A stretch of DNA of 64,000 bases from Anaerolineales bacterium (GTDB taxonomy: Bacteria > Chloroflexota > Anaerolineae > 4572-78 > NAK82), in assembly GCA_020343875.1 (NCBI GenBank), contig CP070811.1:1369313-1433312 (forward strand). Direction: 5' to 3'. The first letter of the stretch is position 1. Every line of letters starts with the position of its first letter. Both the position numbers and the translations under genes were made by a program. The notes beneath the pieces are model-generated. The model did no database searches. It saw only the letters and a program-made list of their open reading frames with translations, and had not been told where the DNA came from. This document shows, piece by piece, positions 409 to 51,804 of this stretch.

Positions 409-3400
409 TCACACCACCTTTCTCACATCGCACAAGAAAGCCTTGTACTCGGGTATCATGGTGTTGGCATCACCCACATGGGGCGTGAGGGTGTTGGCGC
501 TGTCGCCAGTGGAGGCACCACTATAGCCCCAGTGCCAAGGCACGCCAACCTGATGTACCACCTGACCATTTACCTGGAAGGGGCGGAAGCGTGACGTCAC
601 CAGTGCCACAGCCTTCACCGCCCCACGCGCAGACTCAACCGTTACCTGGTCGCCATTCTTGATCCCCTTCTGGGCAGCCAGCTCCCGGCTCATCTCAACG
701 AAGAGTTCCGGCATGGCCTCTACCAGCCAGGGCAGGTTACGCGTCATGGCTCCCGCCTGCATGTGCTCGGTAACACGATAGGTAGTCGCCACGACGGGGT
801 ACTGGCCTGCCTCTCCCTTGTGATCCATCTCCGAAGCCCAAATCTTGAAGACAGGGTTGTTCTGGGTGCCTGACAGCAGGTTGGCTACCGGGCTCTCCCA
901 CGGTTCGTAGTGCTCGGGGAAGGGCCCATCCGTCCTGCCAAAGCCGAAGATGCGCCCATGGCCTTCGGGCTTCATGATGAAGGGGTGGATTGTGTTAGGG
1001 GGAGTGCCACCGTCGGGCACGTCGCCGACCCATTTGTTGGCGGCGGCGTCCCAGCGGATGACGGGATGCTCTTGATCCCAAGGCTCGCCGGTGACCGGAT
1101 GGACTGAGGCTCGGTTATAAATGATACGCCGGTTAACTGGCCAGTCCCAGGCCCAGTTGGAGTACAGGCCGATGCCTGATTTATCCACTGAGTCACGTCG
1201 CTTGGCCAGGTTACCCGCATCTGTGTAGTAACCATATAGCCAGTTGCCAGCGGCTGTGGACCCGTCGTCGCGCAGTTGCGTGAAATTCTTGACCTGCGTC
1301 CCGGCCGGCACGAGCACGTTACCATCGGCATCCAGCAAGTCTACCAGGGCCGAACCACTGATCTCCCTGGCCACTTGCTCGGCATCAGGCACACCATCCC
1401 CGTAATCCCAGGTCAGGTTCACGATGGGCTCCGGGAAGATACCTCCATCGGTGGCGTACAGGCCCTGCACACGCTGCATGATCTGGTTGATGATCCACAG
1501 ATCCTCTTTGGAGTCTCCAAGGGGATCGATGGCCTTGTAGCGCCATTGGACCCAGCGTCCCGAGTTGGTCACACTCCCATCGCGCTCGACGTAAGAGGCT
1601 GCAGGTAGCAAGAAAACCTCGGTCTTGATATCGTCCGGGTTGGCACCCGGTCGCTTCCAGAAGCTGGCGGTCTCTGTCTCCCACAGGTCAACCACCACCA
1701 ACCAATCGAGGTTCTCCATCGCCTTCCGCTCCATGTTGGCGTTAGGGCCACTCACGGCGGGGTTCTGCCCCAACACCAAGAAGCCCTTGGTGTCGCCCTG
1801 ATACATGGCCTCGAAGAGAGAGATCCATGAGTAGTCGGCACCGTTTTTGGGCAGATATTGGTAGGCGAACTCGTTTTCGGTGGTGGCAGCCTCCCCCCAC
1901 CAGGCTTTGAGCAAACTGACCATGTACTTAGGGTAGTTTTTCCACCAGTTGACGCTGTTAGGATCGCTGGTCTGGGGCGTAGACCGCGCCAGGTAAGCTT
2001 CCAGCGTCTGGTCGGCCTCAATGGGGGTATTGAGATAGCCCGGCAGAATATGGAACAGCAAGCACATGTCGGTCGAGCCCTGCACGTTGTGCAAACCACG
2101 CAGAGCATTAATGCCCCCTCCAGCCACACCGATGTTACCCAGCAATAACTGGAGCAACGCATACGAGCGCACATTCTGGGTGCCATAAGTGTGCTGGGTG
2201 GCACCCATAGCGTACATGATTGTCCCTGACTTGCCCGGCTGGCCGGTGGCGGCATAGGCGCTGTACACCTTTTCCAAGGCGTCTTTGGGAGTTCCGGTGA
2301 TCGAAGACACCGTTTCCAGGTCGTAGCGGGCATAGTGTCGCTTCAGATGCTGGAAGGCAGTGTTGAAATCCTGGAGGGTTTTGTCTTCGAGAGGCAGCCC
2401 CTGAGCATCGGTCTGGTAAGACCAGGCCGACTTGTCATAGCCGCGCTTGTCGGGATTGTAGCCCACAAAGAGCCCATCGTCGAAGCCAAAGTCGGGATTG
2501 ACAAGAAAGGAAGCGTTGGTGTACTCGGCGACGTATTCCTTGTGGTAAAGCTCGTTTTCCAAAATGTAGTTGATCAGGCCGCCGATGAAAGCGATGTCGG
2601 TGCCTGAGCGCAGCGGGGCATAGATGTCGGCCAGGGACGAGGTACGGGTGAAACGAGGATCTACACTGATCAGGGTGCCGCCGTTTCGACGTGACTCTTC
2701 CACCCACTTCATAGAGATGGGGTGGTTTTCGGCGGCGTTAGAGCCGATGATCATGATCACATCGGCATTCTTAATGTCAATCCAGTGGTTGGTCATTGCT
2801 CCTCTACCAAACGACTCTGCCAGAGCCGCTACAGTAGCGGAGTGTCATATGCGTGCCTGGTGTTCGATGTACACCAGGCCCATGGCGCGCAGCGCCTTAA
2901 CCCACAGGTAGCACTCTTCGTTGGTGTTCTGCGAGCCCCCCACAAAGGCGATGCCCTCAGTCCGGTTGACTGTCTTGCCCTCTGCCGTCTTCTCGATCCA
3001 ATTGGCGTCACGAGTGGCTTTGATGTTTTGGGCGATGCGATCCAGGGCCCAGTCCCAATCCTTTTCCTCCCAATCACTGGCACCAGGTGCCCGGTACAGG
3101 ACCTTAGTCAGCCGTTTGGGGTTGTTGATGATCTGAAGGGAAGCCGCGCCCTTGCTACACAGAGCACCTTGATTGATGGGGTGATCCGGGTCACCCTCTA
3201 TGTTCACCACTTCGCCTGCCAGGGTGCCCACCACCTGTCCGCAGCCCACGGCACAGTAGGTGCAAATAGTGGTCACCTCGCCCACTTTCTTGCGTAGCGG
3301 AAACCTGGGCACTTCGCCAGCTGCCAGCGCTGCGCTGGTGGGCAGAAGCAGACTCCCTGTCGCAATTCCCGACGCTTTCAGGAAATCGCGACGCGATACC

Positions 3401-3414
3401 CTCATCGCGCACAT
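409..3414 (-). CDS. fdnG: Tat-exported molybdopterin formate dehydrogenase catalytic subunit (FdnG/FdhA type), selenocysteine-containing (UGA at 2845-2847 = Sec, residue ~190)
   Basis: ORFs 2845..3453 and 409..2796 share one frame and are separated only by TGA plus 16 sense codons. The joined protein reads ...YIEHQARI-U-HSATVAALAESFGRGAMTNHWIDI, the canonical Sec active-site context of FdnG. It has a twin-arginine signal (MRVSRRDFLKASG) and a CTYCAVGCG Fe-S motif. Start ATG 3414 was chosen because GAGGAGG lies upstream; ATG 3405 is also possible. Confidence 0.9.
2826..2840 (-). promoter_or_regulatory. Candidate SECIS hairpin for the fdnG UGA
   Basis: The RNA reads UGA CAC UCC GCU ACU GUA GCG G. 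CCGCU/AGCGG (extendable to CCGCUA/UAGCGG) forms a stem-loop starting 5 nt after the UGA. Confidence 0.45.
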
Positions 3415-3661: not shown

Positions 3662-4144
3662 CTAGGGTCTGCGTTCAAGCGAATGTTCCCAGTTCCTCAC
3701 CTCCTTCAAGACCATGTCTACGATTGAGGGCATCTGCCCACTGATCGTAGGCGATAGCTCCAAACCTGTCTCCAGTGAGTCGGGTTGCACCCCTATCAGC
3801 ACTACATGCTGGGGGGTCAGGTCGCGCAACTCCGCCACGCTTAACAGGTCGGCCAGCCCAATCTGATGCGGAGATAGCCTGCGTCCCAGCAGGGCCGGGA
3901 TTTCACCATCGACCAGCCGAACAATTGTTCCTGGCGAACGGTGAGCATCGACCGCGTCAATCACCAGCAGCCGATCGATCCCCTCCAGATAAAAGAGAAG
4001 GTCCAAACCCATAGTCCCCCCGTCCAGTACCTGGACTTCCTCAGGGAAGGTGTAGTGCTCCTTGAGATGCTCGACCACCCGGACTCCGATGCCCTCATCT
4101 TGTAGCAATATGTTGCCGACACCCAGTATCAATGTTCGAAGCAT
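3662..4144 (-). CDS. [NiFe] hydrogenase maturation endopeptidase (HyaD/HupD/HoxM family)
   Basis: 160 aa, MLRTLILGVGNILLQDEGIGVRVVEHL...LLVIDAVD, the typical GxGNxLxxDDG-type N-terminus. It sits directly after the cytochrome b subunit. Confidence 0.85.
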   Translation of the reverse strand: MLRTLILGVGNILLQDEGIGVRVVEHLKEHYTFPEEVQVLDGGTMGLDLLFYLEGIDRLLVIDAVDAHRSPGTIVRLVDGEIPALLGRRLSPHQIGLADLLSVAELRDLTPQHVVLIGVQPDSLETGLELSPTISGQMPSIVDMVLKEVRNWEHSLERRP

Positions 4145-4149
4145 AATGG

Positions 4150-4872
4150 CTACTCGCCACCTTGCTCCGACGCTGTTGGCGGCAATTCCTCCTTCGACTC
4201 AGGCACAATGAACTTCCAGCCGCTGAAGATGCTACTCACCAAGCCATTGGCCTCCTCCACATCCACCAGAAAAGCGCTATAGACGTGATGGATGGCAAAG
4301 GCGATCAGGAGCCACATGATCATGTGGTGAGCCAGGCGCACGCTTTGATTATCCACGATGCGAAACACCCAGCCGGTGAGAGTCCACCAGAAGCCGCCCG
4401 GGTTGACCTGGGCATGCAGGGCAAAGCCAGTCAAGGTCTGCGTGAAGTAGAGGAAGATGATGACGGCGTAGGTAAAACCAGCCAGCGCATTGTGCCCTAG
4501 CACGGTGGGCGGTTCACGCCGCAGGAAGAAGTAATACCGGAAGGCCTGGCTGAGTTTGCCGCGCCCCTCGGGCGTGGCGAAGGGGATGAGCGCCCGCCAG
4601 CTTGCCCACTGGTTTCCGGCGAAAATCGCCCAGTAGACGCGTATCAGCAGACTGGCAATGAAGACATAGGCGAAGAGGAGATGAATGAAACGCATGTTCC
4701 CCATAAAGAACGGGCCATAGGCTTCGCGGTGGCTGACCTGGACGTAAGGGTTGCCGATGTAATAGCCAGTGAAAGATAGAACGATGATACATGCGACGTT
4801 GACCCAGTGGGTGAGCCGGACCGGGATCTCCCACACGTAGACACGGCCTGCGTTGTTGAATCGTGTTGCCAT
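4150..4872 (-). CDS. Ni/Fe-hydrogenase b-type cytochrome subunit (HyaC/HupC family)
   Basis: MATRFNNAGRVYVWEIPVRLTHWVNV..., 4 TM segments with conserved His. ATG 4872 is preceded by GGGAGG. The ORF-track start at 4905 would overlap the large-subunit end. Confidence 0.85.
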   Translation of the reverse strand: MATRFNNAGRVYVWEIPVRLTHWVNVACIIVLSFTGYYIGNPYVQVSHREAYGPFFMGNMRFIHLLFAYVFIASLLIRVYWAIFAGNQWASWRALIPFATPEGRGKLSQAFRYYFFLRREPPTVLGHNALAGFTYAVIIFLYFTQTLTGFALHAQVNPGGFWWTLTGWVFRIVDNQSVRLAHHMIMWLLIAFAIHHVYSAFLVDVEEANGLVSSIFSGWKFIVPESKEELPPTASEQGGE

Positions 4873-4882
4873 CAGAACCTCC

Positions 4883-6619
4883 CTACTGGATCTTGATAGA
4901 GACAATCTCCTGACCCTCTGCGTCCAGAATGTGGGCAGCGCAAGCCATGCAAGGGTCGAAGGAGTGAACCGTGCGCAAGATCTCCAGCGGCTGCTCGGGG
5001 TCCGCTATTGGCGTACCGACCAAAGCTGCTTCGTAGGGGCCGCGCTGCCCATTGCCGTCGCGTGGGCCCGCGTTCCAGGTGCTGGGCACTACGCACTGAT
5101 AGTGCTTAATGCGGCCGTCCTCGATCTGGACCCAATGTCCCAGAGCCCCACGCGGGGCTTCGGTCATGCCAAATCCCTGTGCCTGTGCCGGCCACGTCGA
5201 GGGCTCCCAGCTTTCGCCATTGTGCACCCGCACGTCCCCAGTCTTCATATTGGCCGTCAGTTGGTCCAGCCAGCCCATGGCTACTTCGGCAATGACCCAG
5301 GTCTCAATTCCACGGGCCGCAGTGCGGCCTAACGTGGAGAAGAGCGCTTCTGGCCCTACCCCCAGGTGCGCCAGTACTGCATCTACCTTCTCTTTCACCG
5401 AAGCGTGACTGGGCGCATCGGGCGAGGCATAGGCCATCAACATACGAGCCAGAGGCCCTACTTCCATGGGGTTGTCTTCGTAGCGAGGGGACTTCAGCCA
5501 GCTATATTTATCTCCTTCCCCTGTATTGAGAAACTCATACGGGGGCTGAGGCCCAGTGTAGTTGGGCTGCGTTTCGCCTTCCCACGGATGCAGAGAGGTT
5601 CCATTGCCACGTGAGTATTCGTACCAAGAATGGGCAGCGTATTCAGCAATTTTACTCTGATCTACAGGGTGGACCGTGCTCAGGTCTTTGTTCAGAATGG
5701 CGCCTCGGGGCAGGAAGAGCAATTCAGGATGCAGACTGGGATCTCCCACGCCAAGTGGGAAGTCTCCGTAAGTCATATAATTGCCATGCCCGGTCCCCAG
5801 AGACGCCCACTCCTTGTAGAAGCTGGCCACAGCCAACAAGTCGGGGATGTAGACCTGCTCTACAAACTCCAACCCCATAGCGAAGAGTTTCTTAAGGAGG
5901 GCAATACGCTCGGCATTAAGGACGGATGGGCTGTCGCGATCAATTGCCAGGGCCATGCCCCCAACCAGGTAGGTTTGCAGATGAGGGTTCTTGCTGCCCA
6001 GTACTGCGTGGATGCGAATTACCTCTCGCTGCCAGTCGAGGGCTTCCAGGTAGTGAGCCACCGCCATCAGGTTAGCCTCGGGGGGCAACTTGTAAGCAGG
6101 ATGCCCCCAATAGGCATTGGCAAAGGGCCCCAGCTGGCCGGTTTCTACAAATGCTTTAACCTTGGCCTGGACGGCGCTGAAGTAATTGGTGCTGCTTTTG
6201 GGCCAGTCGGAGATGGATTGGGCCAGCTCTGAGGTAGCGGCTGGGTCAGCACTGAGAGCGCTGACGATGTCTACCCAATCCAGGGCATGGAGGTGATAGA
6301 AGTGAACCGGATGATCTTGAATGTACTGCGCCGCTTCGATCAGGTTCCGGATGATGACAGCATTAAGAGGGACCTCAATGCCTAAAGCGTTCTCTACTGC
6401 TCGCACGGAGCAGACGGCATGCACCGTCGTTCAGACACCTCATATGCGTTGCGTGAAATACCAGGCATCGCGCGGGTCGCGGCCTTGCAGGATAGTCTCG
6501 ATGCCGCGCCACATAGTGGCCGAACTCCAGGCATCAGTTACCTGGCCATCATCCACCTGGGCCTCGACTCGGAGATGTCCTTCGATACGGGTTACCGGAT
6601 CTATGGCAATCTTGGCCAT
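4883..6619 (-). CDS. Group-1 [NiFe] hydrogenase large subunit with two in-frame UGA codons (6440-6442 and 6431-6433) replacing both Cys of the N-terminal RxCGxC motif (putative Sec60/Sec63)
   Basis: Translation from ATG 6619 (GGAGGAGGAG SD, 3 nt after the small-subunit stop) gives [83 protein letters not shown]... This continues in frame into ORF 4883..6424. The C-terminus is ...[12 protein letters not shown] followed by a 15-aa extension that is the protease substrate. Confidence 0.8.
6397..6428 (-). promoter_or_regulatory. Two adjacent hairpins just downstream of the double UGA (candidate SECIS)
   Basis: RNA: UGA GGU GUC UGA AC GACGG-UGCAUG-CCGUC (6428-6413), followed by CUGCUC-CGUGC-GAGCAG (6413-6397). 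Confidence 0.3.
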
Positions 6620-6622: not shown

Positions 6623-7726
6623 TTACTCCTCCTCCACTTCTACTTTGCTTCTGTTCACAGGCTGGGCTTTAGCTCGAATAGCGCTGGCCACGCCATGCAA
6701 AGCGAATACGCCCGTGACCCCCGCCACAATGCCCAGACCCACCTTGTCGGCAGTGGCCTCCACGCCGAAGCCGGGCACATTGGGCAATCGCTCGTAGAAG
6801 GGGCTCATGGTATCCCAGAAATTTGGCTCGGAGCATCCCACACAACCATGTCCTGCCCCGATGGGCCAACTGGTGCCATCGTTCCAGCGCACGATCGGGC
6901 AATTGTGGAAAGTCTCTGGGCCTTTGCAGCCCATCTTGTACAGGCACCAGCCTTTGCGGTGGCCGTGGTCACCCCAATCCTCCACAAACTGACCGGCGTC
7001 GAAGTGCGCCCGCCGTTCACAATCGTCATGAATCCGAGACCCGTAAGCAAACATGGGACGCCCCCTTTGGTCGGTGGCCGGCCAGGCGCCAACGGTACGA
7101 TAATGGACGACCACAGCCGTCAGGTTTTGGACATTCATAGGGCATCCAGGTAAATTGATGACAGGCACCCCATTTACCAAGTCCTTTACCCCGACAGCGC
7201 CAGTGGGGTTGGGCGCTGCAGCCGGGATGCCACCATAGGCAGCACAAGTTCCTGCGGCGATGATAGCAGCCGCGTTTCCGCCGATCTCCTGGACCAGATC
7301 CAGTGCCGTGCGCCCGCCAACGGTGCAGTAGATACCGCCATCCTTGGTAGGGATTGAGCCTTCGACCACTACCAGGTATTGGCCCTTGTAGGCCTCCACC
7401 GTGTCCATCAACGACTTTTCGGCCTGGTGACCGGCAGCCGCCATGACCGTTTCGTGATAGTCGAGCGACAGCACATCCAGCACCAATTCAGCCACCGTCG
7501 GCTTGCTGGCCCGCAGCACCGATTCGGTATTACCGGCGCAGTCCTGGTATTCAAGCCAGAGCAACGGCGGCCGAGCAGCCCCTTCTAACGCTGCGGCCAC
7601 CCGAGGTACATAGCGAGACGGTAAAGCCAGCACCGCTGTCATCGCTGCACAAAACTTCAGGAAGTCACGACGCGCCATTCCTCGTCGGATGAGAGCACTC
7701 TTCAATCCTCCAATTTCGGTTGGCAT
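6623..7726 (-). CDS. [NiFe] hydrogenase small subunit, Tat-exported, C-terminal membrane anchor
   Basis: Twin-arginine signal (RRGMARRDFLKFCAAMTAV), the LWLEYQDCAGNTES proximal-cluster motif, multiple Cys clusters, and a C-terminal hydrophobic helix (VGLGIVAGVTGVFALHGVASAI). Confidence 0.9.
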   Translation of the reverse strand: MPTEIGGLKSALIRRGMARRDFLKFCAAMTAVLALPSRYVPRVAAALEGAARPPLLWLEYQDCAGNTESVLRASKPTVAELVLDVLSLDYHETVMAAAGHQAEKSLMDTVEAYKGQYLVVVEGSIPTKDGGIYCTVGGRTALDLVQEIGGNAAAIIAAGTCAAYGGIPAAAPNPTGAVGVKDLVNGVPVINLPGCPMNVQNLTAVVVHYRTVGAWPATDQRGRPMFAYGSRIHDDCERRAHFDAGQFVEDWGDHGHRKGWCLYKMGCKGPETFHNCPIVRWNDGTSWPIGAGHGCVGCSEPNFWDTMSPFYERLPNVPGFGVEATADKVGLGIVAGVTGVFALHGVASAIRAKAQPVNRSKVEVEEE

Positions 7727-33476: not shown

Positions 33477-35003
33477 ATGCCATCAGGTATCAATATTGTA
33501 GGGTTGGGGCCGGGTGGATCCAATCTGTGGACAGAAGACGCCCGTAGAGTTTTGACCTCAGCTCAGGAGCTGTGGTTACGCACCGCACGGCACCCGGGTC
33601 TTGAAACGTTACGTGATTGCGGGAAAACCCAGATCCATTCCTTTGACTCCTGGTACGAGGAGGCGTCTGATTTCGCCTCTCTTTACGACCGCATCGCTGA
33701 CCACATCGTAACCCTAGGAGCACGCGAAGAAGGGATAGTCTATGCAGTACCGGGCAGCCCCATGATCGGTGAAGCCACCGTGCCCCGTATCCGTTCGCGG
33801 GCAGCCACAGCTGGCCTGCCTGTCACCATCGTCCCCGGCCTTAGTTTCATCGAGCCTACCCTTGCTGCCCTGGGCATTGACGCTCTTGACGGACTGCAAA
33901 TAGCCGACGCCGCCCAATTGGCCACCATGCACCATCCTCCTCTTGACCCGGATCACCCCGCGTTGATCGCACAACTCTATAGTCGGCGTCAAGCAGCCCA
34001 AGTAAAGCTGACCTTGATGAACGCCTATCCGGACGACCACCTCATAGCTCTGGTTCGCGCAGCCGGAACCGATAAGGAACAGGTGCTCAAGTGCCCTCTT
34101 TTTAAGCTGGATCGGCAACCAAGCATTGACCATCTGGTCACGCTATACCTGCCAGCTATACCCCATGCGTCAGGTCTGCCTGCCTTCCAGGAGAGCATTG
34201 CCCACTTGCGCGCCCCAGACGGCTGTCCGTGGGACCGGGAGCAGACCCACCAGAGCCTGCGACCCTACTTGCTGGAAGAGTGCCACGAAGTATTGGCTGC
34301 CCTGGACGCCGAAGACCTTGACGCGCTGCGCGAAGAGTTAGGGGATCTACTGCTCCAAGTTATCTTGCACGCCCAAATCGCCACCGAGATGGGAGAATTT
34401 CAAATGGCCGACGTCATCGGCAAAGTAGACGCCAAGATCCGACGTCGCCATCCTCACGTCTTCGGAGATGTGACCGTCAACGGGATAGAAGACGTGCTCA
34501 GCAATTGGGATGCCATCAAGAGAGCAGAGCGTGCAGCGCACACGCATAGCCTGCCAGAAGTGGAGGATAGCGCTCAAGGGAGAAAGCCTGCCCATGAGTC
34601 AATCTTGGATGGCGTGCCGCTAGCCATGCCTGCCCTGGCCCGGGCCCAGCTCATCTCGCAAAAGGCAGTCCGGGTGGGATTTGAATGGCCGAACCTGGAT
34701 GGTGTGCTGGAAAAGCTAGCTGAAGAGGCGCGTGAGGTCGCAGACGCTCAAACCCCCGAAGAACGCGAAGCAGAGATCGGTGACCTGCTGTTCGTAACAG
34801 TTAACCTGGCGCGCTGGCTAGGTGTAGACGCCGAAAGTGCCCTGCGCGCTACCAATGAACGCTTTACTCGCCGCTTCCGTACCCTGGAACAACTGGCTCG
34901 CGAGCGCGATCAGGCTCTCACCGACCTTGACATCACTGCCCTGGATCTGCTATGGGAAGAAGCGAAACGCATACAACTACAGCCTAGGAAAAAAACATCA
35001 TGA
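33477..35003 (+). CDS. YabN-like fusion: tetrapyrrole (SAM-dependent) methylase domain + MazG nucleotide pyrophosphohydrolase domain
   Basis: N-terminus [10 protein letters not shown]...[12 protein letters not shown]. The C-terminal MazG repeats read [28 protein letters not shown]...ELGDLLLQV and ...EEAREV...EIGDLLF. Confidence 0.8.
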
Positions 35004-35133
35004 GCTCACTTCTTGCCATACGACATGGGCGCTACTTCTCATTCTAGACAAATTCGACAGACTGAGTAGAATAATTCGCATAGTCGGTTACTACCACACC
35101 CAACCAATCCCCAAAAAGGAGGTGTTTTACCAT

Positions 35134-35532
35134 ATGTCAAAGAAGGTTTTAAAGACCGACCAAGAATGGAAAGAACAACTCACGCCGGAACAATATCGGA
35201 TTACCAGGCAAAAGGGTACCGAAAGGCCATTTTCCGGAGAATACTACGATAGTAAAGAGAAGGGCATTTACCAATGTGTATGTTGCGGTGCCGAGCTGTT
35301 TAACTCGGAGACAAAATTCGAATCCGGCACAGGCTGGCCGAGTTTTTGGGCCCCCGTCGACGAAGAGAGCGTAAGCTCCGAGGCAGACTATAGTCTTTTC
35401 ATGAATAGAACGGAGATATTATGCGCGGCCTGCGATGCACACCTCGGGCACCTATTCGACGACGGACCGGCGCCGACAGGCCAACGTTATTGCATCAACT
35501 CTGCCGCCCTCAAGTTAGTTAAGAAAGAGTGA
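35134..35532 (+). CDS. msrB: Peptide-methionine (R)-S-oxide reductase MsrB
   Basis: CxxC zinc motifs (CVCCG, CAAC), GTGWPSF, and the catalytic RYCINS. ATG 35134 is preceded by AAGGAGGTG. The longer ORF-track start overlaps the upstream gene. Confidence 0.9.
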
Positions 35533-41116: not shown

Positions 41117-41929
41117 CTATTCCAAATTCAGCTGCCGACTCACCGACAATCGGATGTCCTGGAAAGCTTCTTCAAGGTAGGGTAAGGCCAGCCAGGCCGA
41201 CCCAATCCCAAAGAGTGCCCCTGTGATGGTACGCAGCTGCCAGTTGCTGGAGCGCAAGCCAACAAGTTGGGTTATACCATCAATCGCCATGGGGACGATG
41301 AAGGCCACGTATCCTTGCCATGGCAAAGGCCTGAGCCGGTTACGCACGAAAGCAAAGAGCATAATTGCCAAGAAGAGCGAGGTATATATCGCCGTGTCAC
41401 GATGGCAATAGGCTATCTGCTGCCCAAATATGAAATAGGAACGCGAAGGCAGTTGATGGCAGGCAAAGCGATAAGCTGAGTAAATCAGATTAGCCGCTCC
41501 AGTGTAACCATTGGCCATCAGAATGGGAGCCAGCAGAGGTAATCCCGCATAAACCCCTATGAAGAAGCCGATGACCGCGATCCAATGCTTGGCAAAGCGA
41601 TAGATCAGCCGGTCTGCCAAAATCACCAGGTCTCTGGCGCGTCCGCTGACCACAGGGTGTGCAGTTTCTCCTGCCCGCTTGTCTGACTCCACTGGGGCAT
41701 CCAGTGCCTGGAGCACGTCGTCTGGCTCGAATGGCCAATACAGACGGGTGCTTTCCCCAACCTCCACCACCGGAATGTGTTCAACAAACAACTTATGCAA
41801 AACTGGATTCTCTTCAATGTCTACAACCTGAACCTCGAACGGCGAGCGCACCGCAGCAGCAGCCAGAATGATCTTTGCCTCTTCGCACAAGTGACAATCT
41901 TCTTTGCTATATAATCGAATGGTCTTCAC
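41117..41929 (-). CDS. Fusion of a glutaredoxin-like (CxxC, DUF836-type) domain with a DUF2085 membrane domain
   Basis: VKTIRLYSKEDCHLCEEAKIIL..., then 4-5 TM segments with FACHQLPSRSY...AYCHRDTAIY. GTG 41929 (GGGAG SD) is preferred so that the gene does not overlap the upstream one. Confidence 0.7.
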   Translation of the reverse strand: MKTIRLYSKEDCHLCEEAKIILAAAAVRSPFEVQVVDIEENPVLHKLFVEHIPVVEVGESTRLYWPFEPDDVLQALDAPVESDKRAGETAHPVVSGRARDLVILADRLIYRFAKHWIAVIGFFIGVYAGLPLLAPILMANGYTGAANLIYSAYRFACHQLPSRSYFIFGQQIAYCHRDTAIYTSLFLAIMLFAFVRNRLRPLPWQGYVAFIVPMAIDGITQLVGLRSSNWQLRTITGALFGIGSAWLALPYLEEAFQDIRLSVSRQLNLE

Positions 41930-41957
41930 AACGATTGACTCCCAACTAACCAGCCCA

Positions 41958-42557
41958 CTATCTGATCCTATCCAATCCCTGCTCAAGCCTGTGGGGCGGC
42001 ATCGGCCCTACGTAACGCGCCACAATCTCACCATCTCGGCTGATGAAGAACGTGGTAGGAATACCTTTCACCTGATAATCGGATGCTACCCTACCTCTTT
42101 CGTCAAGCAGGATGGTGAAAGACATCCCATTTCCCGTGGCGAAACGGCGAACAATGTCCCTAGGTTCCTCAACCGAGATGGCCAGGAAAATGACTTCACC
42201 TCGCTCTCGCTCATGTGCTTCAATCAAGTGAGGTATCTCTGCCTTGCATGGACCACACCAGGTAGCCCAGAAGTTGACCACTACCGGCTGTCCCGAAAAA
42301 TGGCTAAGGGAGACCTGGTTGCCATCCAGGTCGGTCAGAGTAAAGTCAGGGGCAAGACGATCCGCAGCCGCTGCAGCCTGCGGCTTGTCACCAGAGGCCT
42401 GAGCCTCTTCGGATTGGGCATTTGGGTCGGAGGCCACCACTCCAGCCTCTGCGTAGAGAGCCCATGTCACTCCTAAACAGGCCATTAGCACCGCTGCCAG
42501 CATCAGAGTTGCATAAAGGAAGCAGCCTCCGCCAATTCTTTCGCTCAACCATCTCAT
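41958..42557 (-). CDS. TlpA/ResA-like membrane-anchored thioredoxin (thiol:disulfide oxidoreductase)
   Basis: N-terminal TM helix and [20 protein letters not shown] 42557 is preceded by GGAGGTG. Confidence 0.85.
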
Positions 42558-42754
42558 GGTGGTCACCTCCCCCCCCACATAGTCCCCGATTGACCGTGAC
42601 CAAGCCACCGAAAACGCCGACGAGATCCACCCACTGCCCATCACCCGCCCCTACTCAGGAGACAAGATAGAAAGGCACCAGACGCCAGGCCGAGTATAGC
42701 ATACCCATCAGCTTGGCACAATTGATACTTTGTTCGGCACTTGCCGAAGCTCGG

Positions 42755-43588
42755 TCACCCGGCTCTCGCGGGGCTACGGTCCGGGCTACTCACCACCGAC
42801 GTACCGGTCAAATAGCCCAGGTAAATCGGTACCAGGGGTAGTACGCAGGGGGACAGGAACGAAAGCAAGCCTGCTAAGAAAGCCAGCGGGACTGAAACCG
42901 TGGTCCCAACTGCAAACCCGCTCTCTACGTTGGAAAGCCATTCGGGCGTAGCGCTGAAGAGGATGTTGAGGCGAGAAAAGGCGCCGCTGACCAGGAACAA
43001 GCCTACGACAATCAGGAGAACACCACTTATCAACTCAATGGCATGCAAGTAACGGTTGATGCGCTTCAGGAAGCCAACGGCTGTGCTAAGCAGGGCGGCC
43101 GTGATCAGAAAAGGCAAGGCCAACCCCATCGAATAGACGAACAACAAAGGAACGGCGCGTCCCGGCTCGGTGTAGGCTAGCGATAAGACCAACCCCAACA
43201 GCGGCCCCACACAAGGTGTCCAGCCAGCGGCAAAGGTAATCCCTACCACCACCGACCGGGCGTAGCTGGGTGAATGATCTTGGTTGATCTGGAGACGGCG
43301 CTCGGGCAATATGATTGAATCAAGCGTGTAATCAACTTTGCCCACCACGTCCTTGAATGGTTTGGCTGCCTCTCCACCCTGTTGGGCCAAACGCACCAGC
43401 GCCTTAAAGAAGCCAGTCATATGCAATCCCAACACAAGCAACAAGATGCCCCCAATGCGGGCCATCGTGTCAGCATATTCATTTAGCAAACTTCCTAGCA
43501 CCGTCGTGGGAATACCAAACAGCAGGACAAAAACAAGCATGAACCCTGCTACAAAGAGCAGTGCATGACTAAAAACATAGACTCTCAC
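42755..43588 (-). CDS. ccdA: CcdA/DsbD-family transmembrane thiol-reductant transporter, apparently circularly permuted (TM1 with the first Cys motif located at the C-terminus)
   Basis: The FAAGWTPCVGPLLG motif (Cys126) precedes LAFLAGLLSFLSPCVLPLVPIYLGYLTG (Cys248). In canonical CcdA the SPCxLP motif is in TM1 and WTPCxGP is in TM4. GTG start follows AGGAG. Confidence 0.7.
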   Translation of the reverse strand: MRVYVFSHALLFVAGFMLVFVLLFGIPTTVLGSLLNEYADTMARIGGILLLVLGLHMTGFFKALVRLAQQGGEAAKPFKDVVGKVDYTLDSIILPERRLQINQDHSPSYARSVVVGITFAAGWTPCVGPLLGLVLSLAYTEPGRAVPLLFVYSMGLALPFLITAALLSTAVGFLKRINRYLHAIELISGVLLIVVGLFLVSGAFSRLNILFSATPEWLSNVESGFAVGTTVSVPLAFLAGLLSFLSPCVLPLVPIYLGYLTGTSVVSSPDRSPARAG

Positions 43589-43603
43589 CGTATCGACTCT
43601 CCT

Positions 43604-43753
43604 CTAGCCTTGGTCTCTCTTCTCCTGACTCTCCAGCAACTGCTCCATCAGTTCCAGATCTCGCCGCAAGCTTTGCTGGCGGCTGAAAATGCTAAAGGCA
43701 AACACAAAAGTTGCAATCCAAAACACGGCGTAGGCTGCTATCATAAAAGTCAT
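43604..43753 (-). CDS. ccmD: CcmD-like haem exporter small membrane protein (49 aa, below ORF-track cutoff)
   Basis: MTFMIAAYAVFWIATFVFAFSIFSRQQSLRRDLELMEQLLESQEKRDQG. The ATG is preceded by AGGAGG, and the ORF sits between ccmC and ccdA. Confidence 0.6.
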   Translation of the reverse strand: MTFMIAAYAVFWIATFVFAFSIFSRQQSLRRDLELMEQLLESQEKRDQG

Positions 43754-43766
43754 AGGTCAATTCCTC

Positions 43767-44483
43767 CTATCGGAAGATTACTTGCTGCTTGAGGTGCTCC
43801 ACCCGGCGTGTCAGCCACTCGGTGCGCGCGCGCAGGGACATCAAGGCGAAGTAAAAGACGGTAAAGGTAAATAAGCAATAGAAGAAGACCATGCGGATGG
43901 TAGGCCCGAGGGTGAAGTCTCCCTGTGCGTCCGCTGAGCCAGCGCCGATCACCACCGGGTGAATTGTTCGCCACCAGCGGATAGCCATAAAGTTGATGGG
44001 CACCGAGAGGAAAGCGACAATGGCAAACACGGCGGCGAAGCGAGCACGCCGCTCTGGATTGTCGATCGCGCCCCGCAACATCAGGTAGCCGATGTACATC
44101 AACCAGCCGATGGCGGCGGTGGTCAGGCGTGGATCCCATGTCCACCAGGTATTCCAGGTCGGTTTGGCCCAGATCGAACCGGTAATCAGGCCCATGGTGG
44201 TGAAAGCAACTCCGATTTCCACCGACGAAAGGCTGATCACATCCCAGCGTTCGTGCCTGGTGATCAGGTATAGCACGCCTGCCCCAGCCGAAACGATGAA
44301 GGCCAGAAAGCCCACCCACCAGGTGGGGACGTGGAAATAGAAAATGCGTTGTGAATACCGTTCCACCGGCGTTTGCAAATTGGCGGGGTCAGGGGCAACG
44401 CCAAAAACCAACACCACAGCCCCCAGCATCAATAAGCCGGCCAAGGCCAGTAGAATGGCCGTCAAAAGATCACTTTTGGTCAT
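43767..44483 (-). CDS. ccmC: Haem exporter/haem-handling protein CcmC
   Basis: WWD motif region: GSIWAKPTWNTWWTWDPRLTT. Confidence 0.9.
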   Translation of the reverse strand: MTKSDLLTAILLALAGLLMLGAVVLVFGVAPDPANLQTPVERYSQRIFYFHVPTWWVGFLAFIVSAGAGVLYLITRHERWDVISLSSVEIGVAFTTMGLITGSIWAKPTWNTWWTWDPRLTTAAIGWLMYIGYLMLRGAIDNPERRARFAAVFAIVAFLSVPINFMAIRWWRTIHPVVIGAGSADAQGDFTLGPTIRMVFFYCLFTFTVFYFALMSLRARTEWLTRRVEHLKQQVIFR

Positions 44484-44489
44484 GCTCCA

Positions 44490-45164
44490 TTACTCCTCCA
44501 TCACGTAATCGAACAGTATAAAGGCCAAAGCCATGAAGATCAAGTCGAAAGCAACCAGCAGGCTGAACCAGTTCTGCACCTCATCAAAAGCCAGACGATC
44601 AAGAATGGCTGCCGTTAGCTTGACGGCAGCCAACATCACGGGGATGACTACCGGGAAGAGTAAAACAGGCAGCAGCACTTCCCGCGCTCGGGTGTGAATC
44701 GCCATGGCTGAGAACAGAGTACCCACGCCAGCAAAGCCGATCGTCCCCAAAAGCATCACCCCTAGCAGCCAGGGTATGTCTGCGGCCGATAGATTGAACA
44801 GCACCACAAAGATGGGCAGGATGATGATTTCGACCACAGTAATGAAGAGCACGTTGCCCAGCATTTTACCCAGGTAGATAGCACTCCGATCCACTGGCGT
44901 CAGCAAAAGACCTTCCATCGAGCCCCGATCCTTCTCCATAATGAACGAGCGTGACAGGCCGAGCATCCCAGCAAAGGCGATAGCCACCCACAAAACACCT
45001 GGCGCCAGTGTCCTCTGATTCTCGGCGCGTAGATCGAAGGCGAAGTTAAAGATCAAGATGACCAGCAGCGAGAACACAAACATCGAACTGAGCATCTCGC
45101 GTGTACGCAGTTCAGCGACCACGTCTTTGGCTATGACGGCGAAGATTTTGTGAAGATAGCGCAT
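44490..45164 (-). CDS. ccmB: Haem exporter permease CcmB
   Basis: 224 aa, 6 TM. It sits between ccmA and ccmC. Confidence 0.8.
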   Translation of the reverse strand: MRYLHKIFAVIAKDVVAELRTREMLSSMFVFSLLVILIFNFAFDLRAENQRTLAPGVLWVAIAFAGMLGLSRSFIMEKDRGSMEGLLLTPVDRSAIYLGKMLGNVLFITVVEIIILPIFVVLFNLSAADIPWLLGVMLLGTIGFAGVGTLFSAMAIHTRAREVLLPVLLFPVVIPVMLAAVKLTAAILDRLAFDEVQNWFSLLVAFDLIFMALAFILFDYVMEE

Positions 45165-45213
45165 GGGGGCTACCAGTTATGAGTAAGGCACACCACTCGT
45201 GGCTCGCTACTCG

Positions 45214-45912
45214 TTACCCTTCCACAGATTGGTAGTACACTTCCCGAAACTGCCTCGCGTCCAGCTCTGACTTATCAGCCTGATAAGCGATGCGACCACC
45301 AGCCAAGATGGCTACCCGATCTCCTAATTCCAGGCCCCGTTCCAGGTTGTGGGTCGTCATCAAGACTGTTCGATGCGTGGCCCCAACCTCGTGGAGCAAG
45401 TTGCTCAGCATGGCAGCTGCGTGCTGGTCCAGGCCGGTGTCCGGCTCATCCAGGAGCAGGATAGGGGGGTCGTGGAGCATCGCGCGGGCAATCGCCAGGC
45501 GTTGCTGCATACCCCGCGAGTAAGTGCGCACCGGGTCGCGCTGGCGCCCCCATAGCCCGACACGGCGCAGCACCGTTTCAATTCGGGTGTTCACGTTGGG
45601 TACGTCATACATACGCGCATAAAAATGCAAATTCTGCTCGGCGCTCAGGTCATCGTACAGCAGCGTTTTGTGCGACACCAATCCAATCTGCCGCCGCACC
45701 TCAACGGCACCGTCAGCCAAGTTGTAGCCACTCACCCGCACCTGCCCGGCCGTCGGCTTGCTAAGCGTTGAAATTACACTCATCAGCGTAGTCTTGCCCG
45801 CGCCGTTAGGTCCCACTAGGGTCAAAAACTCCCCCTCGGCCACCGTCAGATCCACGCCCTTAAGAACGGCTCGATTGCCGAACGCCTTAACCAGTTTGCG
45901 AATTTCTATCAT
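45214..45912 (-). CDS. ccmA: Haem exporter ATP-binding protein CcmA
   Basis: Walker A GPNGAGKTT, signature SRGMQQRLAIA, Walker B ILLLDEPDTGLD. Confidence 0.85.
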   Translation of the reverse strand: MIEIRKLVKAFGNRAVLKGVDLTVAEGEFLTLVGPNGAGKTTLMSVISTLSKPTAGQVRVSGYNLADGAVEVRRQIGLVSHKTLLYDDLSAEQNLHFYARMYDVPNVNTRIETVLRRVGLWGRQRDPVRTYSRGMQQRLAIARAMLHDPPILLLDEPDTGLDQHAAAMLSNLLHEVGATHRTVLMTTHNLERGLELGDRVAILAGGRIAYQADKSELDARQFREVYYQSVEG

Positions 45913-45915
45913 AAC

Positions 45916-47790
45916 TCAAATTGATCCGAGATCTTGCTCTTGCATCCGCCGCAGCACGTCCGCCAACTCTGCTTTGCGGCGCGCACGGGCGCGGCGGTAC
46001 ACAGCCTCATTTAGCTCGCCGGTCTCGTGAGCCTGGTCCAGGCGAGCTAGGATAAGCAAAAGCCGCTGGCGGTCCCGGGTCGGATTATCCTCACCAGAGT
46101 AATCGTCTGCCCTCAAACGAGGTTGAAGCGCAGGATAGGTCACGCCCAGAACAACGGCTGCCGCCCCTAAAACCAGTATCATCCCTAGCAAAAACGTCTG
46201 TTTGAGCCCCGTTGAGGGCATCACCGTCGAACCAGAGCCAACGCTGGCGTCAGGTGTAGCGGTGAACTGGATCTTATCCAGATCGACCAGCTGGATGGAG
46301 AGTTTCTCACCGCCCTTCAGATCCTGGGCGGTGTACTGCACAAAGTTCTGGCCCTGAGCCGTCCGTTCGCCGCTGAAGAGCAGGGCCTCACTCTTCAATT
46401 CGGCCCCCACATCCAACAGAAGGCCGTTTACGGAAGCCGTATCATAATATAAGGAACGATCCAGGTTAAGGATCGAACCGCTGTAGGGAATGAGGTAAAC
46501 AAAGGCAGCATCGAAGGTTTCCACACCAGGGGCAACAATCGAGGTGGCCACCAACCCATCATCGGTCTCCATAAAGTCAATGCCCATCGTCCCCATTTGC
46601 AGAAATACGTCCTGCGCCCCGGCCGGCAAAGCAATACGCACTGTCTCTCGCAGACCAGCCTCGTTCACCGTCCCCACGTAGGCCCGGTCGCCGGCGTTAC
46701 TGAACTGATACAGCTCAAGAATAGAGAAGAAACCAGGTTGGTCGCCGAAGGCAATAAAATGGAAACGCTCGACACTGATGGCTTCATCACTGGTGGTCGT
46801 CTCGTAGACATTAACAGGCAATGACAGCTGGGCATTGCCCGGTTCAAAACCAACAAAATCACCAGGGAAGGATACGCCATCGTATGTGGCTTCAGAACGG
46901 TAGAAGGTGTGGCTCCGCGTATCCAGGCCCGTAAAGAGGAAGTTACCATCAGCATCAGCTTGGGTTGTAAGCGGTTCCAACTCGGTCTCTTCCTGCCAGC
47001 GTTGCAGCCTCACCTCTACCGAGCCCACTGGCTGGCCAGTGGTGGCATTTTTCACCTGCCCAAGGATAACCCCCTCAGAAATGATGGGCTCGAAGCTGAA
47101 GGTACGCACATAGTCCACCACCTGCCAGCGCTCCTCCTCCGACAAGGCCCTTCCGGTGTTTCCCCGTTCGGCAAAGGCGTGCATCTCGTTCTCACCCTGG
47201 CTGATGATGTCGAAGAGAGCCTGAGGCGATTGGGTGGCTAGAATTGCCGCGTCCGTAAAGTCAGGGACGCCAACGTTACTGCCGGTCCCATCCGCAGCGT
47301 GGCAAGACATGCACTCAGCTTGGTAGATGGCTTCTCCAGCTGCAATGTCGCTGGCCGACGTAGCCAAAGTCTGGGCGTAGGCTACCACGTCCCAAATCTC
47401 GTCCGCCTCAAGGCGCCCCCCCCAGGGTGGCATCATACGGTCCATGCGCCCCTCCTGGGTGACGACGAATAAGTCAGTCAAAGTGCGCTGACGGGCGGTA
47501 GCACGCTCGGCCAAATCGGTAGGCGGGTTATTGGCCATCTCAGGCGACTGTGCGGTAGGGCCATCCCCGCGCCCCGAAATGCCGTGGCAAGGGGCGCAAT
47601 TCTCGGCCCACAACGCCTCGCCGCGCGCCGCCGACGGCCTTCCAGAGGGCGATTGCTGCGGAGGCGCGGCTTGGGCAGTGTTAATGAGCAAGCCTACCAA
47701 CAAGAGGGCTGCTCCCAAAGATGGGATCAGCCCTGTCTTATCCCGGAAAAGGGCATAGAAAGGTTGCAAGTTCAATTTGAATACAGTCAA
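45916..47790 (-). CDS. Membrane-anchored dihaem c-type cytochrome with CarboxypepD_reg-like beta domain and cytoplasmic CcmI-like tail
   Basis: Signal/anchor sequence and two CxxCH motifs (CAPCHG, CMSCHA), each followed by a Met ligand region. It also has GQVKNATTGQPVGSVEVRL...DADGNFLFTGL, a C-terminal TM helix, and RDRQRLLLILARLDQAHETGELNEAVYRRARARRKAEL. Confidence 0.7.
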   Translation of the reverse strand: MTVFKLNLQPFYALFRDKTGLIPSLGAALLLVGLLINTAQAAPPQQSPSGRPSAARGEALWAENCAPCHGISGRGDGPTAQSPEMANNPPTDLAERATARQRTLTDLFVVTQEGRMDRMMPPWGGRLEADEIWDVVAYAQTLATSASDIAAGEAIYQAECMSCHAADGTGSNVGVPDFTDAAILATQSPQALFDIISQGENEMHAFAERGNTGRALSEEERWQVVDYVRTFSFEPIISEGVILGQVKNATTGQPVGSVEVRLQRWQEETELEPLTTQADADGNFLFTGLDTRSHTFYRSEATYDGVSFPGDFVGFEPGNAQLSLPVNVYETTTSDEAISVERFHFIAFGDQPGFFSILELYQFSNAGDRAYVGTVNEAGLRETVRIALPAGAQDVFLQMGTMGIDFMETDDGLVATSIVAPGVETFDAAFVYLIPYSGSILNLDRSLYYDTASVNGLLLDVGAELKSEALLFSGERTAQGQNFVQYTAQDLKGGEKLSIQLVDLDKIQFTATPDASVGSGSTVMPSTGLKQTFLLGMILVLGAAAVVLGVTYPALQPRLRADDYSGEDNPTRDRQRLLLILARLDQAHETGELNEAVYRRARARRKAELADVLRRMQEQDLGSI

Positions 47791-47811
47791 TCTTCTTCCT
47801 CACACCTATGG

Positions 47812-48432
47812 CTACTTCGTACTCCCCATTTCTTCAGCCAGGGACGTGCCACAATGGGCACAAAAGGCATCCCCGGGCTGGTGGGGCATTCCACACTGAG
47901 GACAGGTATCGGCCAGCGAAGCGCCACAAGCAGCACAAAAGACATCACCCCGGTGGTAGGGCTGCCCGCAATCAGGACAGGCTAATGTGACCTTATCCGA
48001 CGCCGCCGCATGTTTAATCAGCGAGGCAATCTCGGCCTCCACAGACTCTATCAAGTCAGTGGGGTACCCCTCCTTACCATCCGAGCGCAACTCGGCAATG
48101 GCATTCTCGATTTCGGCGTCGAGAGCAGCCTCGGCCTCAGGTGTTAGACGATCAAGCCGGTGTAGAATCTGGGCAGCCTCGGCCATATAGCGAGTGCGAA
48201 CAATTTGATAGTCTTCGCTAGCAAGTTTACCTTGCTCCCGATCGAACTCTGCGTCTTTGAGCGCCGCATAGATGGCATCACGACGGGCAACGAGCTCGTC
48301 AGCAGTCAAAACAGTCTGATCTATACTCGACTGCGACCAACGCCCGCCCTTTGTGTCAAAAAAGGGACGAAATACGAAAGCAAAGGTCCCAGCAATCAAC
48401 AAGGCGATGAGAATCATAGGAATAACAGTCAC
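47812..48432 (-). CDS. CcmI-like (N-terminal module) membrane protein with C-terminal double zinc-ribbon
   Basis: TM helix (MTVIPMILIALLIAGTFAFVFRPFF), then ARRDAIYAALKDAEFDREQGKLASEDYQ..., and a C-terminus reading CPDCGQPYHRGDVFCAACG...CPQCGMPHQPGDAFCAHCG. Confidence 0.55.
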   Translation of the reverse strand: MTVIPMILIALLIAGTFAFVFRPFFDTKGGRWSQSSIDQTVLTADELVARRDAIYAALKDAEFDREQGKLASEDYQIVRTRYMAEAAQILHRLDRLTPEAEAALDAEIENAIAELRSDGKEGYPTDLIESVEAEIASLIKHAAASDKVTLACPDCGQPYHRGDVFCAACGASLADTCPQCGMPHQPGDAFCAHCGTSLAEEMGSTK

Positions 48433-48449
48433 GGGGCGTTCCTTCCTCC

Positions 48450-49031
48450 TTAACCCTCTGTCTCCGCGGCCAATAAACGGTCGAGCAATCCATAGAGCTG
48501 CGGTTGAGTCAAGGGGCCGATCTGGACATGCTGAATCATTCCCTCTCTATCAATAAAGAAAGTTTCAGGCACACCGGTACATTGATAATCTTGAAAGATC
48601 CGAGAGCCGATGTCAGGGCCATTGGGATACGTAGTGCCGAAACGGTCCAGGTAAGCAAGCCCCTCGCTATCAATGTCCAGGTAATCGACGCCGATCAACC
48701 ACACACCCTGGTCCCGGTAGTCATTCCAGGCCTGTTCCAGCAAGGGCATCTCCTTGTCACACTCTACGCACCATGAAGCCCAAAAGTTGAGCACGACTAT
48801 CTGACCACGCATGTCCTGCAACGAGAACCGTTGTCCATTGAACTCACCGTTGAAGGCTGTCAGCTCGAAATCGGGGGCTGGCCGTCCTTGCAAGACAGTC
48901 GATGTTTTGGGGCGTAGTCCAAAGGCCAGCACAGCCACAAATGCCAGGACCAACCCCAGCGCCACTAGCAACCATACCGTCCGGCGCCGGGGCGACGTCG
49001 TCTCGGTCTGTACTTGCTCTGTCAAATTCAC
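48450..49031 (-). CDS. ccmG: Thiol:disulfide interchange protein CcmG/DsbE/ResA-like
   Basis: TM anchor and VLNFWASWCVECDKEMP...GVPETFFID. The GTG start overlaps the ccmH stop (GTGA). Confidence 0.8.
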   Translation of the reverse strand: MNLTEQVQTETTSPRRRTVWLLVALGLVLAFVAVLAFGLRPKTSTVLQGRPAPDFELTAFNGEFNGQRFSLQDMRGQIVVLNFWASWCVECDKEMPLLEQAWNDYRDQGVWLIGVDYLDIDSEGLAYLDRFGTTYPNGPDIGSRIFQDYQCTGVPETFFIDREGMIQHVQIGPLTQPQLYGLLDRLLAAETEG

Positions 49032-49555: not shown

Positions 49556-49580
49556 AGCACTCCTTGCTCTTGGGCAACCA

Positions 49581-51695: not shown

Positions 51696-51804
51696 TATTA
51701 TCGTCCCTCAAACAAACATCTGTCTATGGGTAATTTATCAGCTTACGAACAGAACAACAAACACGTTGTCCCTCAATCTTGCCCGCAACACGCAGTCTTG
51801 CAAG

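Follow-up and report, generated by a model that had tools for sequence, protein, structure and literature searches.

A Group 1 [NiFe] hydrogenase of an Anaerolineales bacterium with in-frame UGA at both N-terminal nickel-ligand codons and a probable double-selenocysteine active site

A stretch of 64,000 nucleotides (nt) from an Anaerolineales bacterium of the Chloroflexota (assembly GCA_020343875.1, contig CP070811.1, positions 1,369,313 to 1,433,312), hereafter referred to as the window, carries a gene for the large subunit of a Group 1 [NiFe] hydrogenase in which two in-frame UGA codons occupy the places of the two N-terminal cysteine (Cys) ligands of the active site. Both UGA codons are almost certainly recoded, and both residues are probably selenocysteine (Sec). 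A double-Sec enzyme, as opposed to a pseudogene, had been proposed from the letters of the window without database searches (the sequence-only reading); this proposal is now supported by orthologues, a covarying hairpin, independent assemblies, and a canonical Sec-encoding fdnG gene. We infer that decoding is carried out by SelB and tRNASec with one hairpin serving both codons, and that a form with Sec at the second position only (CXXU, U denoting Sec) preceded the form with Sec at both (UXXU).

The interrupted large-subunit frame

The large-subunit frame runs on the minus strand from ATG (6619–6617) to TAG (4885–4883) with 578 sense positions and only two internal stops, which stand in the context QRI-TGA-GV-TGA-TTVH and are called UGA1 and UGA2 below (Table 1). 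They align with the first and the second Cys of the RxCGxC motif, the former being a terminal Ni ligand and the latter the Ni-Fe bridging ligand (PMC13582414; also established [NiFe] structures). The corresponding motif of the window gene, RI-UGA-GV-UGA, matches RxCGxC only with the UGAs recoded. Translated in this way, the protein is matched by Pfam PF00374 (E 8e-215), and the closest solved structure, 3MYR_B (E 1.6e-232), aligns over residues 3–563. Both Cys codons of the C-terminal DPCMACAAH motif are kept, which leaves the classical [NiFeSe] position without Sec. His563 is followed by a 15-residue C-terminal extension, which is predicted to be the cleavage substrate of the maturation protease. 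All factual sequence statements of the sequence-only reading hold: the mechanical list of open reading frames (ORFs) does place the gene start at GTG 6424, giving 513 amino acids (aa); the ATG at 6619 has a Shine-Dalgarno-like sequence and lies 3 nt past the small-subunit stop TAA (6625–6623); the alignment with Group 1 enzymes is residue for residue; the two interruptions (residues 60 and 63) fall exactly on the RxCGxC Cys codons; and the C-terminal Cys are retained.

One way to dismiss the two codons is an error of sequencing or assembly at both, for which nothing speaks beyond the general possibility and whose probability is practically nil. Four Logan assemblies, each from a sequencing run of its own and 99.7% identical in nucleotides to the window, all read ATA TGA GGT GTC TGA, and so does a JGI contig with 81% nucleotide identity. 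P0001 (513 aa, 99% identical), the closest match among database proteins, is encoded on the same four independently assembled contigs. The consensus error against which the sequence-only reading had cautioned is excluded by this agreement at both TGAs, and the occurrence of the same bases in contigs from four SRA runs and many unrelated metagenomes refutes the explanation altogether.

Another reading would be that UGA has been reassigned throughout the genome, to Trp or Gly for instance, or that a functional truncated subunit starts at GTG 6424. A 513-aa ORF with a GTG start does exist downstream of the two codons, but its product would have neither the two Ni ligands nor the conserved N-terminal RIEGH segment, which is under purifying selection. 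UGA terminates 19 of the 47 Pfam-supported ORFs in the window, indicating the standard code, and the residue aligned with the UGAs in homologues is always Cys. Both versions are refuted by these data and deserve virtually no credence.

Conservation among homologues

Two samples of homologues have been compared. For the genome sample, which is unbiased, one genome per species was scanned with the full-length protein, giving 80 relatives. TGA/TGA is present in two further Chloroflexota metagenome-assembled genomes (MAGs), L001 (91% aa identity) and L007 (76%), and TGY/TGA in five loci (L002, L008, L011, L016, and L023) from Chloroflexota, Anaerolineales, and Caldilineaceae, all the others being Cys/Cys; the seven TGA-bearing genes are otherwise open. 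For the metagenome sample, a pattern scan for CARCGNATHTGHGGNGTNTGAAC returned at least 120 stretches, and at least 114 of the matches listed are hydrogenase genes, at least 50 of them TGA/TGA and at least 64 TGY/TGA, proportions that are biased because the sample was picked for TGA at position 2 and that leave no room for UXXC, to which the pattern is blind. The Sec-type counts given in this paper pool the genome sample with the metagenome matches listed and are thus lower bounds; the pooled set holds at least 53 UXXU (TGA/TGA) and at least 69 CXXU (TGY/TGA) genes.

The tabulation of orthologues, which had been put forward as a check on the double-Sec proposal, comes out in its favor: TGA is kept at both positions in frames that are otherwise intact. 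Of the TGA-bearing genes, 76 reach a stop; 72 of these are full length and lack any additional stop, and all 72 have DPCxxC, with UGA there in none. Over codons 1–59, upstream of UGA1, synonymous and nonsynonymous changes stand at 22:2 against L001, 23:7 against L007, and 18:1 against L205, from which it follows that this segment is under purifying selection and evolves like the remaining gene.

These data bear directly on the possibility of a recently inactivated pseudogene, in which two nonsense mutations happened to land on Cys codons. A change from TGC or TGT to TGA needs only one substitution, and gene callers do split the gene into 59-aa and 513-aa ORFs. However, the same TGAs occur in at least 53 (both) and at least 69 (the second alone) homologues, down to ~60% identity, which also bears out the earlier argument that coincidence is unlikely; nearly all homologues reaching a stop are otherwise intact, as counted above; both flanks of the UGAs are under purifying selection; a covarying hairpin lies downstream and the remaining operon is intact; and the TGA homologues do not represent one clonal sequence in a neighbor-joining (NJ) tree. 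The comparative data refute decay, and a pseudogene is thus extremely improbable.

A few loci of the two samples are irregular. L100, L104, L118, and L199 are the four TGA-bearing genes that end early; two of them contain runs of N, and the two others may have a frameshift or an assembly error. In L010 (JAJRUC010000017.1, ~4178–4410), a Cys/Cys homologue with 73% identity from a Chloroflexota MAG, a TAA stands 77 codons past the motif, which may reflect a real pseudogene or a frameshift. In L069 (DASUAL010000108.1, ~200–500) from Gemmatimonadales, the N-terminal motif region occurs twice in two frames ~300 nt apart, possibly through a frameshift or a duplication.

A conserved hairpin downstream of the UGA codons

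Downstream of the two codons lies a hairpin that resembles a bacterial Sec insertion sequence (SECIS; Table 1), with its loop at 6407–6403. The stem starts 17 nt past UGA2 and 26 nt past UGA1, and the UGA-to-loop spacing is 23 nt for UGA2, the same as in the fdnG SECIS of the window, and 32 nt for UGA1; the position of the hairpin is constant across every Sec-type clade. As in other genes assigned N-terminal Sec, the stem-loop falls within ~50 nt downstream and has G at loop position 1 or 2. The first two loop positions include G in 46/46 UXXU, 58/63 CXXU, and 13/52 CXXC sequences (104/109 Sec-type vs 13/52 Cys-type; Fisher p 1e-20), while Takano et al. report 100% vs ~26% for the same criterion (PMC13582414).

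Pairing in the stem is conserved. Compensatory double changes (UGC..GCA, AGC..GCU, GGC..GCC) are seen in the stem, and other clades have hairpins such as UGACCUC-GGY-GAGGUCA or CCGCCUC-GGU-GAGAGCGG. In a count over 109 distinct sequences with a fixed six-pair register, 85.6% of cells are paired, compared with 79.8 +/- 0.7% in shuffles, none of 500 reaching the observed value, and pairing drops to 31–59% when the partner strand is slid; pair 22–36, for example, is UA in 42, AU in 29, and GC in 4 sequences. A consensus from RNAalifold over all UXXU or CXXU sequences does not return the hairpin because the clades use two pairing registers, and folds per clade together with the fixed-register count were used in its place. 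The conservation of hairpins downstream, another check proposed with the sequence-only reading, is therefore established, with covariation.

The hairpin also leaves its mark on the coding sequence. Third-codon-position entropy is 0–0.25 bit at codons +5, +9, +10, +12, and +13 of UXXU genes, as against 1.0–1.9 in Cys-type genes and in the flanks. At residues 69–70, SECIS-imposed changes replace Leu by Val, Ile, or Thr at +9 and Ala by Cys, Ser, or Gly at +10, turning HALASVR of Cys-type relatives into HA[V/I/T][C/S/G]SVR of the Sec type (window 6397–6415, minus strand); the NGC codon used at +10 forms a pair with the third base of the Ala codon at +14. Among protein columns, only the SECIS-encoded positions were found to separate the Sec type from the Cys type, and the remaining differences look phylogenetic.

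One CXXU clade (L129, L155, L157, L175, L179, and L189) has the SECIS loop CGGGC ~4 nt further downstream, and in these loci a pair of genes for tRNA-Ser(UGA) and tRNA-Ser(GCU) lies a few kb from the hydrogenase genes.

The hydrogenase operon and fdnG

The locus is predicted to encode a periplasmic, membrane-anchored Group 1 [NiFe] uptake hydrogenase. The large subunit is accompanied by a small subunit with a twin-arginine translocation (Tat) signal, RRGMARRDFLKF, and a C-terminal membrane anchor, by a b-type cytochrome whose gene is also called in the near-identical contig L201, and by a protease of the HyaD/HybD family, a composition typical of Group 1 operons. That these three partners are intact, as the sequence-only reading had it, is confirmed by translation and by Pfam and NCBIfam matches (Table 1). 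With respect to a finer assignment, the large subunit scores under the cut-offs of the NCBIfam Hyd-1 and Hyd-2 equivalogs, and a relative with 68% identity, P0097, bears the source label 'hydrogenase, group If'.

On the same strand, fdnG encodes the alpha subunit of formate dehydrogenase-N with a Tat signal. It does use UGA for Sec, as had been noticed before: the codon (2847–2845) stands in the canonical HQARI-U-HS context, preceded by CGC AUA, and is followed by a SECIS hairpin at ~2842–2799 with the GGC loop at 2821–2819, 23 nt after the UGA (-24.1 kcal/mol, z -3.29). When the window was scanned for other ORFs interrupted by TGA, no convincing case emerged besides the hydrogenase and fdnG.

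Table 1. Features of the hydrogenase locus and of fdnG in the window
Feature	Positions	Strand	Basis
[NiFe] hydrogenase large-subunit coding sequence	4883–6619	-	Translation: 578 residues, U at 60 and 63
UGA1, residue 60	6440–6442	-	Aligned with first Cys of RxCGxC (E. coli Hyd-1 C76, D. gigas C65)
UGA2, residue 63	6431–6433	-	Aligned with second Cys of RxCGxC (Hyd-1 C79, D. gigas C68)
AUA (Ile59) codon directly 5' of UGA1	6443–6445	-	Codon tabulation
Extra hairpin GACGG-UGCAUG-CCGUC between UGA2 and SECIS stem	6413–6428	-	Fold
SECIS-like hairpin CUGCUC-CGUGC-GAGCAG	6397–6413	-	Folds and covariation
Shine-Dalgarno-like GGAGGAGGAG before large-subunit ATG	6626–6635	-	Direct sequence reading
C-terminal DPCMACAAH motif	4931–4957	-	Both Cys codons kept (TGC)
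Hydrogenase small subunit	6623–7726	-	Pfam Oxidored_q6 and NiFe_hyd_SSU_C; TIGR00391 468.8 vs cut-off 179.5
Hydrogenase b-type cytochrome, 240 aa from ATG 4872	4150–4872	-	Pfam Ni_hydr_CYTB; TIGR02125 166 vs cut-off 121.5
HyaD/HybD-family maturation endopeptidase	3662–4144	-	Pfam HycI; TIGR00140 166.7 vs cut-off 151.8
fdnG, formate dehydrogenase-N alpha subunit	409–3414	-	Translation; TIGR01553 1115.6 vs cut-off 814

Decoding of the two UGA codons

In the proposed mechanism, translation would start at ATG 6619, and the ribosome would meet UGA at codons 60 and 63. The single SECIS within the coding sequence (loop CGUGC) would bind SelB-GTP-Sec-tRNASec, and Sec would be delivered at both codons before elongation proceeds to the normal TAG. 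The mature site would then have Se at the terminal Ni ligand equivalent to Hyd-1 C76 and at the Ni-Fe bridging ligand equivalent to C79, the two C-terminal ligands staying Cys. The placement of the SECIS is optimal for UGA2, and UGA1 is 9 nt further off. This spacing, together with a hairpin that is common to CXXU relatives, suggests that CXXU came first; UXXU would have been derived repeatedly from CXXU through a second TGY-to-TGA change with the same hairpin. In the NJ tree, CXXC, CXXU, and UXXU form a mosaic in which the state changes at least 17 times and UXXU falls into about nine separate runs, which points to recurrent fixation.

Several observations weigh against this model. None of selA, selB, selC, and selD is found in the 64-kb window or in any of the loci compared, so that the Sec machinery is deduced from fdnG alone; Pfam annotation of the 47 window ORFs gives no SelA, SelB, SelD, or Hyp genes, and ARAGORN detects no tRNA at all in the window and, in 200 loci, 19 tRNAs with no tRNA-Sec or Sec-like tRNA among them. 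Folded as a single sequence, the SECIS region has no significant advantage over shuffles (z -0.5 to -1.1), and since the folding energy is unexceptional, thermodynamics by itself lends no support and the case for the hairpin is a comparative one. An Rfam scan of the window at gathering thresholds gives no match, a negative that is uninformative because the accepted fdnG SECIS is missed too. The spacing of UGA1 exceeds that of fdnG in the same organism by 9 nt, and within three codons the ribosome has to make use of the hairpin two times; a Sec insertion efficiency of 30–40% has been measured in E. coli (PMC4513850), which, if applicable per event here, would mean a low overall yield. To these points may be added the biased makeup of the metagenome sample and the fact that genes resembling tRNA-ReC, which inserts Cys at a UGA with a SECIS, are present in ~56% of genomes with UXXU Group 4 hydrogenases vs ~2% of other Sec-type genomes (PMC13582414).

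The last point leads to an alternative in which recoding is still SECIS dependent but a SelB-dependent tRNA-ReC (selC*) reads one of the UGAs (UGA1 being the most plausible) or both as Cys, so that the product is CXXU, even CXXC, or a mixture set by selenium supply. Takano et al. flag this ambiguity as an inherent limit of sequence analysis (PMC13582414), and it is true that Sec and Cys from tRNA-ReC are indistinguishable from sequence alone; moreover, UGA1 lies at a non-standard SECIS distance (32 nt vs 23 nt). On the other hand, nothing would be gained by recoding to the ancestral amino acid with reduced efficiency, and the TGY-to-TGA change at position 1 has been fixed in about nine separate runs of the tree together with the choice of AUA as the preceding codon. 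Such repeated fixation and codon choice argue for selection on a different product and are hard to explain if the product is unchanged. Reading by tRNA-ReC is accordingly considered unlikely, though worth keeping in mind, and Sec at both sites is preferred.

The codon context of the double-Sec genes differs from that of their relatives. AUA precedes position 1 in 38/47 UXXU, 6/64 CXXU, and 2/53 CXXC unique sequences (Fisher p 7e-15) and in eight of the nine separate UXXU runs of the NJ tree. The fdnG Sec codon is likewise preceded by CGC AUA (AUA at 2848–2850, minus strand) in the window and in L205, these two being the only fdnG genes among the loci. The codon before UGA2 is GUY in 109/111 Sec-type vs 30/53 Cys-type genes. 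Furthermore, an extra hairpin can form between UGA2 and the SECIS stem (Table 1); at -3 kcal/mol or stronger, such a hairpin is found in 74% of UXXU, 19% of CXXU, and 13% of CXXC sequences, with a pairing register that differs between clades, and 46/47 UXXU genes have ACG as codon +5.

Interpreting the extra hairpin as a second SECIS for UGA1 was rejected, given that its register and loop are unconserved and that close CXXU relatives have it too.

It is conceivable, albeit rather improbable, that UGA1 is decoded with the help of a second signal layer beyond the shared SECIS, or under competition between tRNASec and tRNA-ReC. The rare AUA codon directly upstream may be a candidate for such a signal, and so may the extra hairpin described above. 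If competition does take place at UGA1, active sites would be Se/Se or S/Se according to selenium supply, which would thereby tune a Ni-Fe site with a bridging selenolate.

Relation to known selenium-containing hydrogenases

Sec at the N-terminal ligands is known from Group 4. Takano et al. (Front Microbiol, 3 Sep 2026) describe in silico 47 Group 4 large subunits, 27 with CXXU, 4 with UXXC, and 16 with UXXU, term UXXC and UXXU previously unrecognized, and estimate that N-terminal-Sec enzymes make up ~0.2% of Group 4; in Groups 1 and 3, according to the same authors, Sec is C-terminal apart from three CXXU cases (PMC13582414). These three are the N-terminal CXXU motifs of two Group 1 sequences and one Group 3 sequence from Baltazar et al. 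(2011), as cited in PMC13582414. In a review of prokaryotic selenoproteomes from 2026, [NiFeSe] enzymes are still assigned to sulfate reducers and methanogens only. The sequence-only reading had called the double-Sec motif undescribed, which stands in part: N-terminal CXXU in Group 1 (2011) and UXXU in Group 4 (2026) were known, while no report of UXXU in a Group 1 hydrogenase was found in the searchable literature.

The resemblance to the Group 4 UXXU genes is extensive. In both, UGA takes the place of the two N-terminal Ni-ligand Cys codons; a SECIS-like hairpin whose first or second loop nucleotide is G follows within ~50 nt; CXXU and UXXU relatives have the core SECIS in common, with one hairpin proposed for both codons; and the genes form a mosaic among Cys-type relatives and come mostly from MAGs, Chloroflexota included. 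However, the Group 4 UXXU enzymes are energy-converting complexes facing the cytoplasm, whereas the window encodes a Group 1 uptake enzyme of the Tat-exported type with cytochrome b. The window gene does not belong to Group 4, the sole group with published UXXU, and is outside the published data set. The AUA bias and the match to the fdnG spacing are seen here and are not reported for Group 4 (PMC13582414). As for the CXXU sequences of Baltazar et al., Sec is predicted at the bridging N-terminal ligand of Group 1, the very state of at least 69 homologues here; as far as they are described in the citing paper, only the second Cys is replaced in them, whereas both positions are Sec codons in the gene of the window.

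Classical [NiFeSe] hydrogenases of group 1a, such as those of Desulfomicrobium baculatum (1CC1) and Desulfovibrio vulgaris (HysAB), likewise have a Sec ligand to Ni and a bacterial SECIS. In contrast to the window gene with its DPCMAC, they have Sec at the first Cys of the C-terminal DPCxxC, a terminal ligand. They are also distant, aligning partially with E ~1e-90 to 1e-97 as against 1e-232 for 3MYR, and the NCBIfam HysA model NF045518 gives 411.3 bits, under its cut-off of 780. This distance and the sub-cut-off score argue for an independent acquisition of Sec, and its use here would represent a separate origin within Group 1. The closest solved structures, aligned over residues 3–563, namely those of the membrane-bound hydrogenase of Allochromatium vinosum (3MYR, the closest), Salmonella Hyd-5 (4C3O), and E. 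coli Hyd-1 (3UQY), have the same motifs and the same operon organization (small subunit, large subunit, cytochrome b, protease), but have Cys at all four Ni ligands, two of which are UGA in the window gene.

Whether an active site of this kind could work can be judged from engineered Hyd-1 variants. C76U and C79U retain 3% and 13% of native activity, respectively, and are left with hardly any activity at 10% O2 (Evans et al. 2021, PMC8020662); Se at these positions is thus compatible with catalysis. The variants, which mature and oxidize H2, have Se at the same two Group 1 ligand positions, but are single substitutions made through an EF-Tu/UAG system, whereas the window gene has two UGA codons. 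To our knowledge, no double C76U/C79U variant has been made and no natural enzyme of such a type has been characterized. Likewise, we know of no natural [NiFe] hydrogenase with Se at the bridging ligand or with two Se ligands that has been purified, and of no [NiFeSe] biochemistry so far that concerns any position other than the C-terminal terminal ligand. The window gene and its relatives would provide natural counterparts to C76U and C79U and, with one bacterial SECIS serving two UGA codons 9 nt apart, a compact system for Sec insertion.

Distribution and mis-annotation

In public gene calls, the gene appears as a 59-aa 'HoxH' ORF followed by an ORF of 498–513 aa (1255–1434 and 1450–2991 in L201; 4563–4742 and 4776–6299 in L205), and the proteins P0001, P0003, P0008, and P0121–P0213 derive from genes split in this manner. 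Because the splitting is uniform, surveys of hydrogenases and selenoproteomes miss the CXXU and UXXU enzymes of Group 1. Truncated large subunits form dozens of clusters at 90% identity in NCBI, JGI, ENA, and Logan data, and a protein search with a UXXU gene of another clade gives dozens of truncated 498-aa clusters, one of them named Thermodesulfovibrionia. N-terminal-Sec Group 1 enzymes thus span at least two phyla, the Chloroflexota and a clade with Thermodesulfovibrionia as its single named member. Judging from these genes, Group 1 CXXU and UXXU enzymes are common in metagenomes of anoxic environments and have arisen many times; they appear much commoner than the published Group 4 cases.

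Other genes of the window

The minus strand of the window carries at 41117–52293 a cluster for cytochrome c maturation (CcmA, B, C, E, F, and H). Interleaved with it are genes for a 624-aa diheme cytochrome c, a membrane protein resembling DsbD, and three thiol:disulfide oxidoreductases of the thioredoxin fold. The redox motifs yielded no in-frame TGA. On the plus strand, an MsrB (SelR) ORF (34837–35532) overlaps the end of a TP_methylase/MazG ORF (33477–35003) by 167 nt; the first 114 residues of the MsrB ORF have no domain match, and its true start is therefore probably further downstream.

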